Shown piece after piece: positions 1 through 8,124 of a stretch of 64,000 nt of DNA. Made by a program: the position numbers and the translations under genes. Each line of letters starts with the position of its first letter. Within the stretch, counting starts at the first letter, position 1. Under the pieces are notes generated by a model. It was not told the DNA's origin. It made no database searches and worked only from the letters and a program-made list of their open reading frames with translations. This stretch comes from Nitrospirota bacterium (GTDB taxonomy: Bacteria > Nitrospirota > JACRHJ01): positions 192,001 to 256,000 of the forward strand of contig CAVTDB010000003.1 in NCBI GenBank assembly GCA_963733375.1, written 5' to 3'.

Positions 1-1656
1 CGTTTTATAGCCTCGTCTCTCACGTCCTCAATGATCGCGCCTTTATCAACCAGGGCGATATAATCTTCAATCTGCTTTTTCTGATTTTTCTTCTCTCTTG
101 CTATCGCCCTGTAATCCTCTTCCGTGATGTGATAGCCCATTAATTCGCGGTCCTTTGCATGGCAGATATATTCACCCCTAAAGAAGCAAATAATTTCGCC
201 CTTGTTTTTATATACCGGCCTGATTTCAACGCTCTGCCCGATGAACTCAAAAAGCGCCTCATGCTGATATAAAATATTGTCGTATTGAATTCCTTGAGTA
301 GTAACCTTCCTGGGCACTCTTGAAGCGGCCACCACTTCAAGGACTTCGGGCGGCGCTGTTACTTTCGCTACCTTGGAAAATTCACAATGCCTTTCAAGGC
401 ATGATTTTTTAAGCGGCCTTCTAAATTCCTTGTGGTACTTGTCTTTTATGTAGCTGTAAATGATCCGTTCCAGGTCAGCCATTGTTAAAAGCGGCTTTAT
501 ATCGTCCGGGCGATTTTCGGGGTTTCTGCCGCAATAGCCCGGCAGTTTTGAGATACACTGTCCTTCAAAGGTCCTAAAAAATCTTTCAATCGGTTTCGAT
601 GATCCTCTATATGGAATAGCATGAGTTTTATCAACTCCCATGTCATTAAGAAGCGCTTCAAAATCGGCGCTTAAGTAGTCCTTGCCGTTATCGACATAGA
701 CGGATGCCGGAACTCCAAACATTGGATAATCCTTATCCGGCTTGGGCGCGACTCCATTCATAAAGCTCTGCATAATGGTTAAAGAGTTGCCCTGAAAGGT
801 CAGACTATAACCGACAATGCTCATATCACATAGGTCCATCCATGCGGATAGCCAGGGCCTTACTGCCTTGCCATTTTTGTTCTTTATAAAGAGGTCCAGC
901 TTATGATGATCGCCGCACCAAATATCATTTATGAAGTCCGGTTTCTTACGCGCGGTTTTTACTTCAAATTTATCCGTAAAGGTTTTTTTGGTTTCGCGCT
1001 CATGGGCTATTACAGCCGGGGGATACTTCCGATGATCCTCCGGGCGGCGGTATAAGACAATTTCTCGCCCCGCGCATCCGCAATCGGTAGCGTCTTTTCA
1101 TAAACTTCCAAAATGGAATATTTAGGCTTGCTTAAATAAAATTTCTGGAGCGTCTTTTGAACTTCATCGGATACCGCCCGGATAATGCCTTTGTCTTTGC
1201 GGTCCTTACGGCAGAGGGCTTTATAGTCTTTTTCTTTCCAGGCGCGCACCCACCTGAAAACGGTGCGGGGCGACACCTCGTTAGCAGTCTGCGATTTTCC
1301 CGGCCAAAACGGTTCTTATCCGTGGCGTCCGAAAAAAGGAGCGGCTGTATAATTTCTATCTTTTCGCTTACCTCGTTTTTTTCCTCATTGCTTAAATAAA
1401 GCCATTGGCTATCAGTCGGCTTTTGTTCAGGTGCGGGGGACGTGGGCTTTATTGGAAGGTTTGCATTTGCGAGATATTTAGCGGGCAGGTTATACAGGCT
1501 TTCCAATAAAATCAGCGTCTGCCTTTTTCCATTGCGGGACGTGCGGGGGGCCGGGCGAGCGACAAGCGAATATTTTTTAGGAAGACGTTTAGCGGTCCTC
1601 AAGGGGGTTTTGAGGATGTTCGCCATTTCTCCTATGGTTATATACTTATCGTCCAC
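1..1656 (-). CDS. MuA/TnsB-like DDE transposase (3' end outside the window; two apparent frameshifts near 1280 and 1010)
   Basis: Joined frames give N-terminal HTH (YITIGEMANILK), SPRTVFRWVRAW HTH, then manually read IWCGDHHKLD, RPWLSAWMD, VYVDNGKDY, SKPIERFFRTF. Confidence 0.85.
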
Positions 1657-1672
1657 GCCGGGCCCCTTGTGA

Positions 1673-1984
1673 TTAAAAATCCAGCAGGTGTTTTTTATCG
1701 CAGAGGTCCTCAAGGGCGGCTTTCATCTCCTGCGCATACGCTATGGCATTACCCGTCTCCAGGAGGTCCCGCTTGTGGTACTCGTAAAGCTCGATCTCCT
1801 TTACGTCGTGGCTCCCGCTCATAAGGGCTTTTCTTTCCTTCTCCACCCTTGCGATGGTGTCCTTCATGTTTGCCTTTTCTTCGGCAATGAACGTGTCTAT
1901 GCCGCCCTGGATGTAGCGGCTCAGTTTCAGGCTCATTTTCTTCGGGCTGATAATCAGCCTCTTTTTAGTGTTTTCCATCTCCAT
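1673..1984 (-). CDS. Hypothetical 103-aa helical protein upstream of transposase
   Basis: ORF with AAGGAG RBS, co-oriented with and immediately upstream of the transposase. Confidence 0.65.
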   Translation of the reverse strand: MEMENTKKRLIISPKKMSLKLSRYIQGGIDTFIAEEKANMKDTIARVEKERKALMSGSHDVKEIELYEYHKRDLLETGNAIAYAQEMKAALEDLCDKKHLLDF

Positions 1985-2080
1985 CTCCTTAATCTCCTTT
2001 CATTGTTTACTGTTTACAGCGCCCTTAAGATTTGTTAAACTCCCAGTTAATTTTTTCTTGTAGCGGAATATAAATGCAAT

Positions 2081-2123
2081 AATATTTCATTAAACGAAAT
2101 ATGTCAAATAAAATATTTCATTA
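2081..2123. promoter_or_regulatory. Divergent promoter/operator region of element 1
   Basis: AATATTTCATTA at 2081-2092 and 2112-2123, flanking a - strand TTGACA (2102-2107). Confidence 0.5.
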
Positions 2124-2146
2124 TTTACAACTTCATTTAAATTCTA

Positions 2147-2545
2147 ATGCCGCCTTCTTTTAAAGTTGAATTAGGTCAAAGACTTAAAAAAGTGCGCCAA
2201 TCTATGGAAATGACGCAAAAACGATTTTGTCTTCATTTTGGGCCTACTGTTGAAAGTCCAAGCCTGTTAAGCCGGTATGAATCCGGCGATATTAACCCGC
2301 CGATATATCTTTTTAAGCTCCTTGCGGATCAAACGATTAATCTTAATTGGCTGTTTACAGGCGAGGGTCCTATGTACCTCGACGGTGATAAGCCTTTATC
2401 GGTTCCCGACTCTGCTACACGGCGAGAACTTGACGCAATATGGAAAACACATCGGATTTTTAAAGAGTGTGGGGCCGATAAGGTTAAGGCTTTAACGGTC
2501 TTCTTAAATTCCCTTGATCCTGGCCGGGATAATAAAGAGAAGTAA
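2147..2545 (+). CDS. XRE/CI-like HTH repressor
   Basis: LGQRLKKVRQSMEMTQ...LLSRYESG...INLNWLFTGEGPM signature, divergent from the transposase operon. Confidence 0.9.
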   Translation: MPPSFKVELGQRLKKVRQSMEMTQKRFCLHFGPTVESPSLLSRYESGDINPPIYLFKLLADQTINLNWLFTGEGPMYLDGDKPLSVPDSATRRELDAIWKTHRIFKECGADKVKALTVFLNSLDPGRDNKEK

Positions 2546-2572
2546 ACATACTTTTTTAGAAATCGTAACAAA

Positions 2573-2824
2573 CAGGGGCCACAATTTAAAAAGCAAAAGT
2601 GGCCCTGGGATAATTCCTAATAATCGGCACCTAAGAGCCGAAACTCCTTTAAATGTTTAGTTTTTTAGATTTTGGCCCTTGGATTCAAGGTTTTTTAATA
2701 AAAGTGGCCCTGGGATAATTCCTAACAAAGCTTATCCTATTGTAAAATTTAGGCTATCCCGTTTTGAGAGTTTACATAACATTTCCGTTACTGACAAATA
2801 AACTGGCTATTTGGCCCTTGGATT
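2573..2824. repeat. Subterminal repeat cluster (TGGCCC core)
   Basis: Perfect 26-bp repeat at 2595-2620 and 2700-2725; TTTGGCCCTTGGATT at 2671-2685 and 2810-2824; one inverted copy near 2573-2583. Confidence 0.9.
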
Positions 2825-3010
2825 TGGGCGGCTTTCCGATGCCTGGGGCGATAAAATCAGGGGTTTTAAAGGTTTTTTAAAGGAGGGTTAATCTATTGCA
2901 TTATAAGGGATTTAATTTCTCTTTAAATCTCGTTTAAGAGGTTCCATTTCCCACGTAATCCCGCGTTTTCTCGTTTTTTCCCGCGATTTTAATATTGACA
3001 TATAAAGTGA

Positions 3011-3595
3011 CTACCTACAGCCGTGGAGTACCTTGCAGGCGTCTTTCGTCAGCTCCACCTCGCATAGCTCCTTGACCGCCGTGGCCACGTCGTCTTCGTC
3101 CAGCGGCCGGAACTTGTATATCTGGCTTATCCGGGAGAAGAAGTGGGGGTGCCTCTTCAGCATCCGGTCCACCTTGCCCATCCCGATAAGGACGATGGGC
3201 GTGCCGCATTCGTCGTGCAGGTCCCTGAGCGATTCCAGCACCCGCGTATCACGGCAGCAGAAATCTATCTCGTCCACCAGGAGCATGGTTTCCTGTTTCA
3301 TCAGTTTCTCTTTCGCCTGCTCGAAGAGCTTCGCGTAGTTGTATTTGGGCTCCTCGCCCAGTTCCGCGACTATCAGCTCCATCAGCCAGCGCGCGCTTAT
3401 GTTGGCCTTGGCGCGGATGTATTTCGCGTTAGACCCCTTGCGGCCGACGAGCCACGAGCAGGTCTCCGTCTTGCCGAGCCCCGGGTCGCTATAGACAAGC
3501 CCCAGCCCCGGCACGCTTGGCTTCTTATCGCGCAGGTTCTTCACCAGCTCCAGCGTCCGCATCACGTTTTTTGTCTTTACAATGGCATTGCGCAT
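3011..3595 (-). pseudogene. MuB/TnsC-like AAA+ ATPase truncated by element 1
   Basis: Walker A (SDPGLGKT), Walker B (LLVDEID), LRDLHDE...IVLIGM...FFSRI; last codons TGT AGG TAG are supplied by the element 1 terminus. Confidence 0.85.
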
Positions 3596-3670
3596 CTGGT
3601 ATTGTTTCCTCCATTCGTCGTTCGTACTGCTCGGTTTGTTAGGCCCTCGTTGCCGCGGGGGCCATGCTTT

Positions 3671-5794
3671 TTACGCGTACTGAAGTTCCTTTTCGTATCG
3701 CTCCAACCACCCCCTTTCATCCTTCGTCATGGTTGCCTTGCCCTTCAAGTCCTCGTATTTTTCGTAGTCCGACTGGTAGAGCTTGCGGGATAGCTTCGGC
3801 GGCACCGCCTCGGTAGAGGGGCCTGCTGTTTCGCTGGCAGGCATATAAGCTTGTCGGCAAGGGAAGTAGCCGCGCACCGGCGTTCCGTCTCTAACGTGGC
3901 AACGTCCGCTATCAGCCTCGGCATCTCGCGTGTCAGCCTCGCCTGTGACCAGGGCGTCCGGGACTCCGTACCCGGCCGCAAGATATGCCCGCGCGGTTTT
4001 AATCGTCTGTTTTCGGAGGTGGGCCTTGTTCTTGTTCGCCTGGCTGACCGCCTCCATATCCACCTTGCTTCCGGTGAGAGCCGCCATCGCGGGCACGGCC
4101 GTCTGGAGGCTTGCGGAGCAGAGATAGCCGCCGTTCGGAAGATAGACATGCACCTGTTCTACATCGAAGACCGAATACCGGATTTCCGCCCGGCCAGCAT
4201 ATCCGTAGAGGGCGTCGTGCCAGTAGTTCAGGCCGCGCCAGCGTATGCCCTCGCGGGTCACCTTGGTCACCTCGGCTGACATCATCAGGTAGTCGAGTTG
4301 ACGGGCGTCGATGCCGGAGCCGCGTCCAGCGGCGAAGACCTCGGCGGGAATCCGGCCCTGTAGTCCCTTGTGCGGCTGGGAGTGGTGGAACTTGAGCCAC
4401 CGGCCTATCATCTCCACGGCCTGCGGGATGCTGGGGACGAAGTCCCCGTGGGCCTGTTTATGGAATTTCTCGTTGCGCATCATCCAGGTGGGCTTGTCTT
4501 CTATGGAGGCTCCGGTAAAAGACTCGATCATCCGTTCGCACTGGTCCCCGAACGTGCCCCAGAAGCGCTCTATTATCTTCGCCTGGGCGTTGTACGGCCT
4601 GGAGAAAACGGGCTTGATGCCGAGCCTGCCGAAGAGGCCGACTATGCCGCATTGCTCCAGGTCCACATCCGACGTGAAGAACTTCGCCCTGAATGATTTG
4701 CCGTTGTCCTGATAGGCTATGCGCGGGAATTTGCCGAGCGTAAGGATCGCGTTCCGCAGCGCCCCCGCGATTACCTGTGTGGTCTCCTCTATCATGATCT
4801 CGTAGCCGCAGAGGTAACGCGAGGCCCAGTCTATGTAGCCTATCAAGGTCGCCCGGCAGGGCTTGCCGGTCCAGGGATTAATCACGAGGAAGTTCAGCCT
4901 GTGCCCGTCCGTTATGAGCACGTCCCCGACCTCCAGCATCGAGCTATCGCGCTTGATATACGGCGATACCTTGTCGTTTAGGGCCTTCTCGCCCTCGCGC
5001 ATCAGCACCCACAGGTCCCGCTGGGTATCCATGAATTCTTTGATATGGCGCTCTAACGTTTTCGGGGACGAGGGGGAAGGGATTCCCTTCTCTTCGAGGA
5101 CGTACTTCATAAGCCTTATAGCCGTCTGCACCGGGCGTTTCTGGGGGGTAAGCAGGATATTCAGGAGAGTCGTGGACTCGTGGGCCATGACCGAACGGGA
5201 GCCCTTGCTTGTGCCCCACTCCGGCGCCAGGGCGCGGTAGTCGTTGCCCGACTCGATGTATGTCTTTTCCCAGCGGTAAAGGGTGCCCTGGCTGACCGTG
5301 TCCAGCTCCTTGAAAATCTCTTCCAGCAGGACTCCGGAATTGTAGGCCGCGAGGAAACGGCTGAGCGCGATCTTCGTCTTGCGTTCCTTCTTGGCGTCGT
5401 CTTTCGCCTTGTGCCAGGCATGCACGAGGTCCGCTCTGGCAAGGGCCTTTTTCTGGGCCCAGGGCGGGAGGATTCCTGAAGCAACACCGGGAATCATAAC
5501 GCCCCTCCCAGCCCCACTCCCTGCGGCGGGAGGGGGCGTGGCGATGGAGGAGCGGCCCAAGGCCGGAGGAGCCACCGACTGGCCTTGCAATTTAAGATAT
5601 TCAGCCTGGGCGGAAGGGGGAAGGGAGGATAGCGGGACGAGATATTTCATGCCGCCCCGGCCGCCGCGTGAGGGGACTTCTTTGGCGGCGAGTTTCCCGG
5701 AAATTATTTGACGCCGGAGGGTCCGTTCCGTTGTCTGTAAACCTATCGTTCCTAAAAGCTCTGCTACTTGTTTTACTTCAAGTAGTGCCTGCAT
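3671..5794 (-). CDS. MuA-like DDE transposase
   Basis: N-terminal Mu-type HTH (GGRGGMKYLVPLSSLP), ITDGH, YQDNGKSF, AKIIERFW, Mu-transposase C-terminal region; start taken at MQALLEV. Confidence 0.93.
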   Translation of the reverse strand: MQALLEVKQVAELLGTIGLQTTERTLRRQIISGKLAAKEVPSRGGRGGMKYLVPLSSLPPSAQAEYLKLQGQSVAPPALGRSSIATPPPAAGSGAGRGVMIPGVASGILPPWAQKKALARADLVHAWHKAKDDAKKERKTKIALSRFLAAYNSGVLLEEIFKELDTVSQGTLYRWEKTYIESGNDYRALAPEWGTSKGSRSVMAHESTTLLNILLTPQKRPVQTAIRLMKYVLEEKGIPSPSSPKTLERHIKEFMDTQRDLWVLMREGEKALNDKVSPYIKRDSSMLEVGDVLITDGHRLNFLVINPWTGKPCRATLIGYIDWASRYLCGYEIMIEETTQVIAGALRNAILTLGKFPRIAYQDNGKSFRAKFFTSDVDLEQCGIVGLFGRLGIKPVFSRPYNAQAKIIERFWGTFGDQCERMIESFTGASIEDKPTWMMRNEKFHKQAHGDFVPSIPQAVEMIGRWLKFHHSQPHKGLQGRIPAEVFAAGRGSGIDARQLDYLMMSAEVTKVTREGIRWRGLNYWHDALYGYAGRAEIRYSVFDVEQVHVYLPNGGYLCSASLQTAVPAMAALTGSKVDMEAVSQANKNKAHLRKQTIKTARAYLAAGYGVPDALVTGEADTRDAEADSGRCHVRDGTPVRGYFPCRQAYMPASETAGPSTEAVPPKLSRKLYQSDYEKYEDLKGKATMTKDERGWLERYEKELQYA

Positions 5795-5861
5795 ATCCAC
5801 CCTCGGTTTTAGCCGTTGACATTCGCGTTGGGACGTTTTAAAATCCAGTTCAATCTTGAAC

Positions 5862-6146
5862 TCAGGCGGCGCAGTCGTCCGCGCGGTAACGGAGCGGCCA
5901 GAGGGTTTCCTTCGGCACGCCCAGTATGGCGGCGACGTAGGTCTGTACCCGCTCCGATTTGTCCCGGTCGTATACGGCGTACTTAACGCCGTTGCAGGAC
6001 ACACCCATTTGGCGGCCTATTTTCGACCAGTTAAGGTTCCTGCGGCGAAGCTCGTGGTAGATGATCCGGCCCCGTTCCTGGCGGTCCGTCTCAAGATTGA
6101 GCTGGCGGAGGAAGAGCTTCATGTGGGATTTTTCTCTTACTGTCAT
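5862..6146 (-). CDS. Ner-like DNA-binding protein
   Basis: IYHELRRRNLNWSKIG...VAAILGVPKETLWPLRY resembles the Ner/Nlp WPxRY terminus; AAGGAG RBS; upstream of MuA. Confidence 0.75.
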   Translation of the reverse strand: MTVREKSHMKLFLRQLNLETDRQERGRIIYHELRRRNLNWSKIGRQMGVSCNGVKYAVYDRDKSERVQTYVAAILGVPKETLWPLRYRADDCAA

Positions 6147-6165
6147 GTCGGGTACTCCTTAACTA

Positions 6166-6581
6166 TGAGCGGTTATGCCACATACGCGTACTCAAGTAGC
6201 GAACACGTAGCGGAATTAAAAGGATCTCTAACCAAAGAAGATATAGACGCCTTGCGAGAGGACTGCGCCACTCTCGGTAGACCCGCCTGGTACGCCTGGA
6301 TGCGGGATAACAGCGAGGCGATATTTGAATTCCTACTGGCAACACAATCGGTTCGGGACAGGAAGAAGAAATGGAAAGATAAGGTTTACAGGCGGCGGAT
6401 CGTTTACGCCGCCCTACAACAGGCCCGCTGGTCGAAGTCGCTTCTCGACCTACTGGATAGTCGCCCCCTGCAACCGGGGCTTTCATATCGGGAAATGACG
6501 GCAAGGGCCGGGCTGACGTGCCTTGAGATGCTTTTTTTATACAGCCCGGAGTGGCCTTTTGATGCTCCAGTTCCATTTTAA
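6166..6581 (+). CDS. Hypothetical protein (antisense to early operon)
   Basis: ORF from MSGYATY with globular-protein-like composition; no clear RBS. Confidence 0.5.
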
Positions 6582-6680
6582 CGTGCTCCCTTGTGAATTA
6601 ATTCTCTAATGCGGGTGATGTTGAACTGAAAATACACTATTAATTTATTACTGTCAAGCTAAATAAATTAATAATTTATC

Positions 6681-6810
6681 GTCCGCAATGATTTTTGATA
6701 TACTTTGGCGACTTCCCGCCTAACCTATTATTTTATTTAGAATGTTTACTATGTCCGCAAAAGAAAAAACGTCCGCAAAAATGTCCGCAAAAGGGCGCGG
6801 AATGCGGACA
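6681..6810. repeat. GTCCGCAA repeat cluster upstream of repressor
   Basis: Direct copies at 6681, 6753, 6771, 6783; inverted TGCGGAC at 6803. Confidence 0.85.
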
Positions 6811-6825
6811 CGTGTTTCTTTTCCT

Positions 6826-7203
6826 ATGGATGTCGATGAAATCCTTGACCGGATTAAGCGATTTGAGGGTATTACGGAAGACAAAGAGGTGGCTGATAAA
6901 TTATTAATGAAGCCCCAGTCTTTATTTAACGCCAAACTTGCGAGAAGAATTCCCCTTGATATATTAGCTATTTACGCACAGGAAAAGGGTATATTATTCG
7001 AGTGGCTTTTAACCGGCGAAGGCCCTGAGCGGCTGGCCCCACTGGCTTTGAAGGAGGAATACCAGGACATCCGCCTGGCTAATATGATACATCTCGTGCG
7101 GAAAATCTATAAAGAGGGGAAGGCGGCGAAGATCGAGGCGATAGAGTCTCTTTTAAAGGCGCTTAATCCGGAGGAGCCTAAAAGGAGGGGGAAAAAAATA
7201 TGA
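6826..7203 (+). CDS. Phage CI-like repressor HTH protein
   Basis: EILDRIKRFEGITEDKEVADKL...IPLD...FEWLLTGEG; start taken at MDVDEIL. Confidence 0.85.
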   Translation: MDVDEILDRIKRFEGITEDKEVADKLLMKPQSLFNAKLARRIPLDILAIYAQEKGILFEWLLTGEGPERLAPLALKEEYQDIRLANMIHLVRKIYKEGKAAKIEAIESLLKALNPEEPKRRGKKI

Positions 7204-7763
7204 TAACTATGACGAGGTTTTTACAATGCGTGTTCGATCCACAGCCGGAGGAAAACCATCTTGCAAGCCGGTACGATGCCTTTATTGAAGAGGCACAACG
7301 GCTTAAAGGGATTATAGACCGTCACATGCAGGCTGCAAGAGATGGTAAGACCATTAAAACTATAGAAAATAACGTCGAAAAAGCGAAAGCAGCGGCCATA
7401 CAACTAATAAAGATTACGCCGCCTGGACATAAAAATAGCGTCTTTGCAAAAATCATAATTTTTACGGTGATAAATTTTAGACATATAACGACTCTTGAGG
7501 AGATTGTTTTTTTCGATGAGGCAAAAAAGGAATTATTTCAAGCGTTTTATGAAGGTAAAATTACTGACGAAATGCCGCGACCGGGCATAGGAAAGCATCC
7601 AGAATTAAAAATTTTACAATATAAGAAAGCGTTGAGATGGACTTTAAAGGCTTTGGATTTTTTCCCTAATAATGAATGTTTTAATGAATATAAGAGCGAT
7701 ATTACGGAATGCATTGACGAATTAAAACCCATAGCGGGAGCGATAAAGAAGGTGAAAAAATAA
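7200..7763 (+). CDS. Hypothetical AT-rich cargo protein
   Basis: 187-aa ORF with ATGA overlap to the repressor stop. Confidence 0.7.
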   Translation: MITMTRFLQCVFDPQPEENHLASRYDAFIEEAQRLKGIIDRHMQAARDGKTIKTIENNVEKAKAAAIQLIKITPPGHKNSVFAKIIIFTVINFRHITTLEEIVFFDEAKKELFQAFYEGKITDEMPRPGIGKHPELKILQYKKALRWTLKALDFFPNNECFNEYKSDITECIDELKPIAGAIKKVKK

Positions 7764-8007
7764 GGCGGCCTGTGCCGCCCTCTTACATGCGCCGAGCGCA
7801 CGGTTTAAAATTCTCAAATTGCTTGTCTAAAACTGCCCTTCCGAGCCGTTTATTCTCAAATTGGCTTTTCCCGGCGATTTTCAGAATAGTCCTTTAAATC
7901 CCGTTATTTCCCATGTATTCCCGCCTTTTCCCGGCGTTTTCAGATTACTTGTCTTACTATAGTTGGATGAAAATTGCTACAATTTTGCTACATTGCCCGT
8001 TTTTGGC

Positions 8008-8041
8008 AAAAAAAAGGACTCACGGAAATCCGTAAGTCCTT
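8008..8041 (-). terminator. Rho-independent terminator after tRNA-Val
   Basis: AAGGACTTACGG-ATTT-CCGTGAGTCC followed by T8 on the - strand. Confidence 0.75.
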
Positions 8042-8049
8042 GATTTTAA

Positions 8050-8124
8050 TGGTAGGCGATGGGGGGTTCGAACCCTCGACCCCTGCCGTGTGAAGGCAGT
8101 GCTCTCCCGCTGAGCTAATCGCCC
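8050..8124 (-). tRNA. tRNA-Val (anticodon CAC)
   Basis: GGGCGATTAGCTCAGCGGGAGAGCA CTGCC TTCACAC GGCAG GGGTCGAGGGTTCGAACCCCCCATCGCCTACCA. Confidence 0.97.

Follow-up and report, generated by a model that had tools for sequence, protein, structure and literature searches.

The transposons Tn552 and Tn5053 are compact elements of the MuA/MuB type, in which a transposase and an ATP-binding partner are carried on a few kb of DNA with no virion genes. Phage Mu chooses its targets nearly at random, with a target consensus of 5'-CYSRG, and shows both cis-immunity over ~5 kb and genome immunity (PMC7350765, in part). Among Tn7-like elements, tRNA genes are known attachment sites, and TnsF, an inactivated tyrosine recombinase, serves as a Tn7-type target selector (PMC10293859, in part). 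Here we describe a locus of a Nitrospirota bacterium (GCA_963733375.1, contig CAVTDB010000003.1; below, assembly G000, contig C3) at which the end of one Mu-like element, E1, lies within the MuB-type ATPase gene of another, E2, next to a tRNA-Val gene. The window is the whole stretch of 64,000 nucleotides that was presented for annotation (G000:C3:192001-256000), and the region studied is window positions 1-8124 together with the upstream contig. E1 comprises window 1-3019 and its upstream continuation, and E2 comprises window 3020-7961; E3 is a paralogous copy at C3:160429-163682, and further paralogous copies of the E2 family lie at C20:17452-20764 and C1:96881-98577 of the same assembly. 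G000 is a metagenome bin of 2.39 Mb in 26 contigs, 81% complete and with 5% contamination, and it was compared with two genomes of the same genus, G001 and G002. We consider it probable that the E1 end transposed into the E2 MuB gene, and that this nested insertion was followed by deletion and by decay of both elements. The features on which this reading depends are the following (window coordinates unless a contig is given).

1-1722, continuing to C3:191826, minus strand: E1 MuA-type transposase pseudogene, with rve and Mu-transpos_C.
2147-2545, plus strand: E1 repressor, with HTH_3 and a match to a PHROG transcriptional repressor.
2930-3019, minus strand: E1 left (repressor-proximal) end, TGTAGGTAGTCACTT followed by two AAAWCGCGGGA sites, alignable with Mu attL.
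3011-3595, minus strand: E2 MuB-like AAA+ ATPase, truncated, with AAA_22/TniB and PHROG 296 at 3e-37.
3671-6004, minus strand: E2 MuA-type transposase, an intact open reading frame (ORF), with rve and Mu-transpos_C and PHROG 310 at 1e-101.
5862-6146, minus strand: E2 ner-like protein, with HTH_35.
6742-7203, plus strand: E2 repressor of the CI type, with Phage_CI_repr.
7842-7961, minus strand: E2 left end, terminus TATAGTAAGACAAG, placed by same-genus and paralogue comparison.
7962-8049, no strand: spacer between E2 and the tRNA gene, containing the tRNA terminator hairpin at 8014-8041.
8050-8124, minus strand: tRNA-Val(CAC), by tRNA gene prediction.

As in phage Mu, repressor, ner, A and B follow one another with the repressor facing the element's end, the E1 terminus resembles Mu attL, E1 has homologues of Mor, gpT, gpG and gpI, and a complete relative of the E2/E3 family is flanked by a 5-bp target duplication. 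Unlike Mu, E1 is reduced to 7.6 kb, its A gene is frameshifted, it has no terminase, portal or tail genes, and its head genes are in the order T, G, I; the termini of E2 and E3 read TATA (TATAG... in E2) instead of TG; and E2 and E3 stand beside tRNA genes, whereas Mu inserts nearly at random (PMC7350765, in part). An initial annotation, made from the letters of the window, had reported two MuA-type transposases in the same orientation, each with its own divergent repressor, and this was borne out: both transposases carry rve and Mu-transpos_C on the minus strand, and each element has a divergently placed helix-turn-helix (HTH) repressor, HTH_3 in E1 and Phage_CI_repr in E2, the two being 33% identical over 66 residues. 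The order c-ner-A-B that it named as a hallmark of Mu holds in E2, where all four genes are present and B is cut at residue 192; in E1 the transposase is not one ORF but is spread over three frames, and the ORF in the ner position has no family match. The TG...CA ends that it also named hold for the one end of E1 and not for E2. The E1 MuA is 22-24% identical to those of E2 and E3, and MuB is 26% identical, so E1 and E2 belong to different families. The idea that related elements accumulate at this site holds for the E2/E3 family, which recurs at tRNA-Val, but is not supported for E1.

The E2 ATPase frame ends in ...CAC GGC TGT AGG TAG and encodes 194 residues in total. Residues 1-192 derive from E2 (3020-3595), and C193, R194 and the stop codon (3011-3019) are supplied by the E1 terminus, just as the initial annotation had read it. 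Because two paralogous MuB genes also read GGC TGT at this point, the junction at 3019/3020 is fixed only to +/-3 bases, and the break may lie up to 3 bases further left. Among 5.8 billion proteins the ATPase has 22 non-self matches at E<=1e-10; all but one of these are 212-281 residues long, and the remaining one is a 161-residue fragment covering 60% of the query. None ends near residue 194, the natural ending that the initial annotation had named as speaking against truncation, and from the lengths of the 21 longer homologues about 40 residues are missing from E2. The closest homologue is 86% identical, has 233 residues and is encoded on a 17-kb contig. The alignment stays in step to ...ELTKDACK.L, where E2 stops and every homologue goes on for ~40 residues; homology breaks off at H191/G192, in mid-domain, and the PHROG 296 match falls ~37-41 profile positions short of those of the paralogues. 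These comparisons support the view that a genuine Mu-type terminus, joined to E2 at this point, cut the ATPase short.

On the other side of the junction, the E1 terminus (TGTAGGTAGTCACTT) matches the left end of phage Mu (attL, AF083977; TGTATTGATTCACTT) at 11 of 15 positions counted from TG, and the AAAWCGCGGGA cluster at this end is the sole such cluster in the G000 assembly. E1 is single-copy there by blastn, so the join does not lie at an assembly repeat. G+C content changes at ~3000, close to the junction, from 0.37 on the E1 side to 0.59 on the E2 side, and E1 as a whole (0.37-0.50) is far below its surroundings. The break coincides exactly with a Mu-type terminus, interrupts a conserved domain and lies in DNA that is single-copy in the assembly, which makes a transposition junction by far the best reading of the 3019/3020 boundary. 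At the opposite border of E2, the end placed at 7960/7961 in the initial annotation was confirmed: same-genus homology starts at 7961-7965 (95% with G002:C1, 91% with G001:C28), and the three paralogous copies (E3 and those on C20 and C1) are alike up to ...GTTATA and divergent beyond, so the boundary is correct to within a base.

We infer the following order of events. E2, a Mu-type element with the order repressor-ner-A-B, would have entered at a point 88-89 bp past the 3' end of tRNA-Val, oriented so that its transposase-proximal end points to the tRNA gene. The left end of the unrelated Mu-like transposable prophage E1 would then have been strand-transferred into codon 192/193 of the E2 MuB-type ATPase gene, removing the last ~40 residues of the ATPase. 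Both elements would subsequently have decayed, E1 to ~7.6 kb (repressor, frameshifted A, B, Mor and three head genes) and E2 to 4.9 kb, and the missing parts would have been lost, after a simple nested insertion, by a later deletion reaching from inside E1 to past the far end of E2. With one end each, a broken E1 transposase and a cut E2 ATPase, both elements are immobile fossils.

Several results weigh against this account. The initial annotation had predicted that the upstream contig would contain the other end of E1 flanked by a duplicate of GCCGT, then the 3' part of the ATPase gene, and then the other end of E2 flanked by GTTGG; nothing convincing of this kind was found in the 192 kb upstream or in the rest of the assembly, an outcome that includes part of what the annotation had itself named as refuting its reading. 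No inverted partner of the last 120-170 bp of the E1, E2, E3 or C20 ends was detected in the assembly by blastn. Neither blastn nor a motif search revealed a second E1 end in G000: short-motif scans allowing one mismatch were too unspecific, and the stricter E1 motif used instead gave one cluster, at the known E1 end. Six full-length homologues supplied C-terminal queries of 47-55 residues for a tblastn search of G000, which turned up no orphan ATPase tail; it did recover the tails of both intact paralogues, at E values of 1e-9 to 1e-32, and nothing else, and so had the power to see the remainder. Searching for GCCGT followed directly by TG returned 18 TGTA hits genome-wide, all in G+C-rich coding DNA and none like an element end; the absence of a 5-bp duplication for E1 may reflect loss of its other end. 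The head genes of E1 are in the order T, G, I versus G, I, T in Mu, which speaks for more rearrangement than a single deletion explains, and the assembly is an incomplete and slightly contaminated metagenome bin. With no reciprocal junction, ATPase remainder or duplication, the claim that E1 is inserted in the MuB gene of an outer element is supported for the junction and its Mu-type terminus but not for full nesting of E1 in E2.

Two candidates for the distal part of E2 were considered and rejected. GTTGG followed by TATACTGC at C3:186889 lies where the E2 distal end would be expected and is oriented accordingly, but it is without the ~21-bp repeat of E2, the sequence outside it does not resemble the G001/G002 flank, and the pattern (GTTGG followed by TATAC) has 17 hits genome-wide; it was not counted as support. 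The island between tRNA-Val repeats (C3:163.8-200 kb), taken as one large E2 with cargo, has no E2-type end at its left border.

The strongest alternative is that the elements were never nested, and that E1, resident upstream, attacked the E2 MuB gene by intramolecular replicative transposition. The intervening DNA (the distal part of E2 and the ATPase remainder) would then have been lost as a circle, and the reciprocal junction would never have formed. Mu-type elements are known to make adjacent deletions when they transpose replicatively, and one such event accounts for the missing ATPase remainder, E2 distal end and target duplication together. However, E1 must have been intact at that time, so its distal end would be expected upstream; none was found, and extra deletions are needed here too. 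In number of events the two accounts fit equally well, and nothing in the sequence separates them; we regard adjacent deletion as unlikely, though by no means negligible. Less probable again, and to our minds improbable, is that the E1-E2 join is an assembly artefact or a minority variant, absent from most cells of the population. Such an origin would fit a 26-contig bin with 5% contamination, the G+C content of E1 well under that of its surroundings, and the absence of E1 from G001 and G002 by DNA search; but the break lies exactly at a Mu-type terminus and not in a shared repeat, E1 is a decayed stump rather than a replicating phage yielding many junctions, and the contig runs through 192 kb upstream of the window without an N. 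That the 194-residue ATPase is a natural short form beside unrelated AT-rich intergenic DNA finds a parallel in the single 161-residue homologue, but we reject it as extremely improbable on the lengths of the other 21 homologues and the mid-domain break in homology to even the closest of them, the 161-residue protein itself spanning just 60% of the query and the adjoining DNA bearing a Mu-like terminus and a repressor/transposase module.

Returning to nested insertion as the preferred reading, we consider what each element was. For E1 the initial annotation had left open whether it is a prophage or a non-viral transposon, and its gene content, with Mor, gpT, gpG and gpI, makes it phage-derived; to judge from these genes, E1 is a Mu-like prophage stump of ~7.6 kb. 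Its further features are:

1673-1984, minus strand: 103-residue ORF in the ner position, with no family match.
2079-2107, minus strand: early-promoter-like site, TTGACA-17-TATTAT, a consensus match only.
2595-2620 and 2700-2725, no strand: two perfect 26-bp direct repeats inside the E1 end region.
C3:191131-191802: E1 MuB, intact, 223 residues, with AAA_22 and PHROG 296 at 2.6e-35.
C3:187373-190591: E1 Mor, Mu-like gpT, gpG-like and gpI genes, by Pfam/PHROG matches.

The E1 transposase is read in three frames (1135-1722, 1013-1315, and 1097 down to C3:191826), that is, with two frameshifts, and is therefore a pseudogene. Upstream of it follow the MuB gene, a 121-residue ORF, Mor, and the genes for the Mu-like gpT, gpG-family and gpI proteins (Mu-like_gpT, Phage_tail_S and Mu-like_Pro), the series ending at C3:187373; Mor directly adjoins gpT. 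E1 lacks terminase, portal, tail and lysis genes, and no terminase, portal or tail gene was found by Pfam scan between C3:163.8 and 195 kb; without a complete virion module, E1 is a remnant unable to form particles. No relatives of E1 were found among viral contigs with a 424-residue piece of the transposase as query, or in G001 or G002 by DNA search. We also considered E1 as a compact capsid-bearing satellite, but it has no second end and its transposase is broken. The 26-bp direct repeats lie between the repressor gene and the terminus, where they alternate with a second, shorter repeat, and they may be accessory binding sites.

Beyond the E1 gpI gene lie a serine-recombinase fragment, an aminotransferase, a histidine kinase, a papain-type protease, and RHS and beta-helix surface proteins. 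The fragment, an N-terminal piece of a large serine recombinase of 252 residues (Resolvase and Recombinase; C3:186095-187206, L003:6095-7206), abuts the last E1 gene and has a 97-residue ORF in another frame behind it; it is probably another broken integrase of the island. Between C3:180001 and 187400 nothing is conserved in G001 or G002 beyond 95-bp matches.

The remnant of E2 is 4.9 kb long, with no virion genes in what is left. Its remaining features are:

6163-6576, minus strand: 137-residue ORF, the first gene of the early operon, with no family match.
6629-6657, minus strand: promoter-like site, a consensus match.
7200-7763, plus strand: 187-residue ORF behind the repressor, with no family match.
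7865-7885 and 7925-7944: ~21-bp repeat in the E2 left end, seen in self-comparison.

The maximal ORF of the E2 transposase has 777 residues. Relatives align from residue 71, so translation probably starts at M71, at position 5794, to give a protein of 707 residues. A search for close relatives of E2 gave one 43% match among viral contigs and three of 39-44% among genome contigs. Two distant ones, in Elusimicrobia genomes (L025 and L027, 39-44% identity), have terminase, portal and Gam genes nearby. In both (L025:1000-8332 and L027:1501-8280), genes for the large terminase, portal and gpG-like proteins, and in L025 a gpF-like protein as well, stand directly upstream of the repressor and transposase, a layout unlike that of Mu, where the head genes come after the early region.

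A near relative, in G002 (G002:C2, L019:10366-14340), is complete, with 3,975 bp between two copies of GCCGC, and codes for only a transposase, a 233-residue ATPase and a 161-residue winged-helix protein. Its left terminus, TATAAATTGACAGG, was fixed against the C20 and C1 copies, and its right end reads ...GTATACA, the right border being the start of homology with G000:C16 and G001:C48. From these borders and this gene content, we identify it as a compact non-viral transposon of the Mu type with a 5-bp duplication, and the question of prophage or transposon is answered for this family relative in favour of a transposon. In size and gene content it resembles Tn552 and Tn5053; it differs in that no resolvase or TniQ/TniR was seen in it, and E2 differs in having a phage-type repressor/ner switch.

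Within the genus, E2/E3-family elements recur beside tRNA genes or copies of the tRNA-Val 3' part, always with the transposase-proximal end toward the 3' end of the tRNA sequence. E2 lies 88-89 bp from tRNA-Val, and E3 ~118 bp from the tRNA-Val repeat copy at 163.7 kb. In G001, a solo E2-like end stands ~85 bp from another copy of this repeat (G001:C27), and a remnant end ~232 bp from that genome's tRNA-Val (G001:C28). On C1 of G000 there is a pile-up (L008, G000:C1:96380-98577), in which a C20-type end lies 190 bp after tRNA-Met and an E3-type end lies 234 bp inside it in the same orientation, followed by a transposase cut at ~residue 380. The complete copy on G002:C2 is 397 bp after tRNA-Leu. 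Four family ends (C20, G002:C3, G001:C65 and G001:C55) have no tRNA gene in the DNA at hand. The chance that one random oriented end falls within 400 bp after one of 43 tRNA genes is ~0.004, and this recurrence would most simply be explained by a preference of the family for tRNA 3' flanks, to which the position of E2 would also be due. Two of the ends without a tRNA gene, at G000:C20:20764 (L007) and on G002:C3 (L022:10450), occupy the same chromosomal locus, with a C20-type element in both and termini 20 bp apart; the offset may mean that the locus was hit twice independently or that 20 bp were gained or lost at the border.

A comparable arrangement was seen in metagenomes. Metagenome contigs were scanned with six aligned transposases as the query; 136 loci were confirmed, and the results given here are for the best 80 of these. 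ARAGORN predicted 27 tRNA genes within 287 kb of upstream sequence, every one on the strand of the transposase, and a single one, on the opposite strand, in 309 kb downstream. The tRNA genes are concentrated in loci with short transposases (~565 residues), mostly from gut and rumen samples (metagenome loci L079-L115, e.g., L080:5508-9314). There are 31 such loci, defined by a match starting at query residue 170-200, and 26 of them have at least 700 bp of upstream sequence; in 15 of these 26, a same-strand tRNA gene lies 375-495 bp before the transposase gene. The tRNA genes are for Ser, Leu, Ile, Gly, Tyr or Val, i.e., of at least six types. When 12 of the gut/rumen loci were aligned, the conserved element was found to start at TATAGGTTTTCAGGACAG, ~20-150 bp after the tRNA gene. 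Four loci encode the transposase, a 226-residue ATPase, a 184-residue protein whose sole Pfam match is an integrase SAM-like domain, and a 134-residue HTH protein, followed by variable defence-like cargo (Macro, SMODS and helicase).

Like Tn7-like elements, the E2/E3 family combines an rve and Mu-transpos_C transposase with an AAA+ regulator and lies in a constant orientation behind a conserved gene, to which it turns its transposase-proximal end. Unlike them, no TnsA, TniQ, TnsF-like or Cas family was found in Pfam scans of the ORFs of C3:114-200 kb, of the complete G002:C2 element and of proteins from the four gut/rumen loci. The distance to the tRNA gene is also variable rather than fixed (~20-400 bp overall; 85-397 bp in the genus and ~20-150 bp in gut/rumen loci), and the third gene encodes a small winged-helix protein or, in the gut/rumen loci, the 184-residue protein with only the integrase SAM-like domain. 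We tentatively propose, as a possibility rather than a probability, that the E2 lineage consists of Mu-type transposons with TATA termini that home in one orientation to the 3' flanks of many tRNA genes without TniQ, TnsD, TnsF or Cas, by means of this small DNA-binding third protein (winged-helix in the E3 type, integrase SAM-like domain only in the gut/rumen clade). The pile-up at tRNA-Val would then be the product of repeated homing, and the E1 hit on the AAA+ gene would have frozen the resident. A full-text literature search, which was not exhaustive and left supplementary files aside, found no description of MuA/MuB elements that home to tRNA flanks without TniQ.

Two points speak against homing. 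In a FastTree phylogeny of 84 rows (78 of the 80 metagenome proteins and six others, with Mu as outgroup), the tRNA-associated short-transposase loci fall mostly in one 26-row clade, while E2 and E3 are in a separate 28-row clade, none of whose metagenome loci has a nearby tRNA gene; simple inheritance from the gut/rumen clade therefore does not account for the tRNA habit of E2/E3, and the in-genus cases alone bear on it. The obvious confounder is that tRNA flanks are tolerated sites and island hot spots, where survival bias could mimic homing.

Taken alone, the junction is an ordinary fossil, left when a transposable phage struck a second mobile element of an accessory island before the two decayed; it shows that heterologous Mu-type elements are not shielded from one another, as models of Mu immunity predict (PMC7350765, in part). 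The more useful result is that the outer element's family is found, again and again and in the same orientation, at tRNA 3' flanks. Should a small DNA-binding protein indeed direct a MuA/MuB machine to tRNA flanks, it would make a compact protein-guided targeting system.

The tRNA-Val site itself is repetitive. Its 3' half and ~80 bp downstream (window 7972-8094) are present in four direct copies on C3 in all, the others being at C3:163722-163845 (93%), 125341-125436 (88%) and 118536-118628 (87%), and these repeats bound accessory segments of about 7, 38 and 36 kb. The DNA between them encodes type I restriction-modification, NACHT, TIR, SLATT, RHS and giant surface proteins, and G002 has a nif cluster between the tRNA gene and such a repeat. 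The picture is one of islands apparently added in tandem at tRNA-Val.

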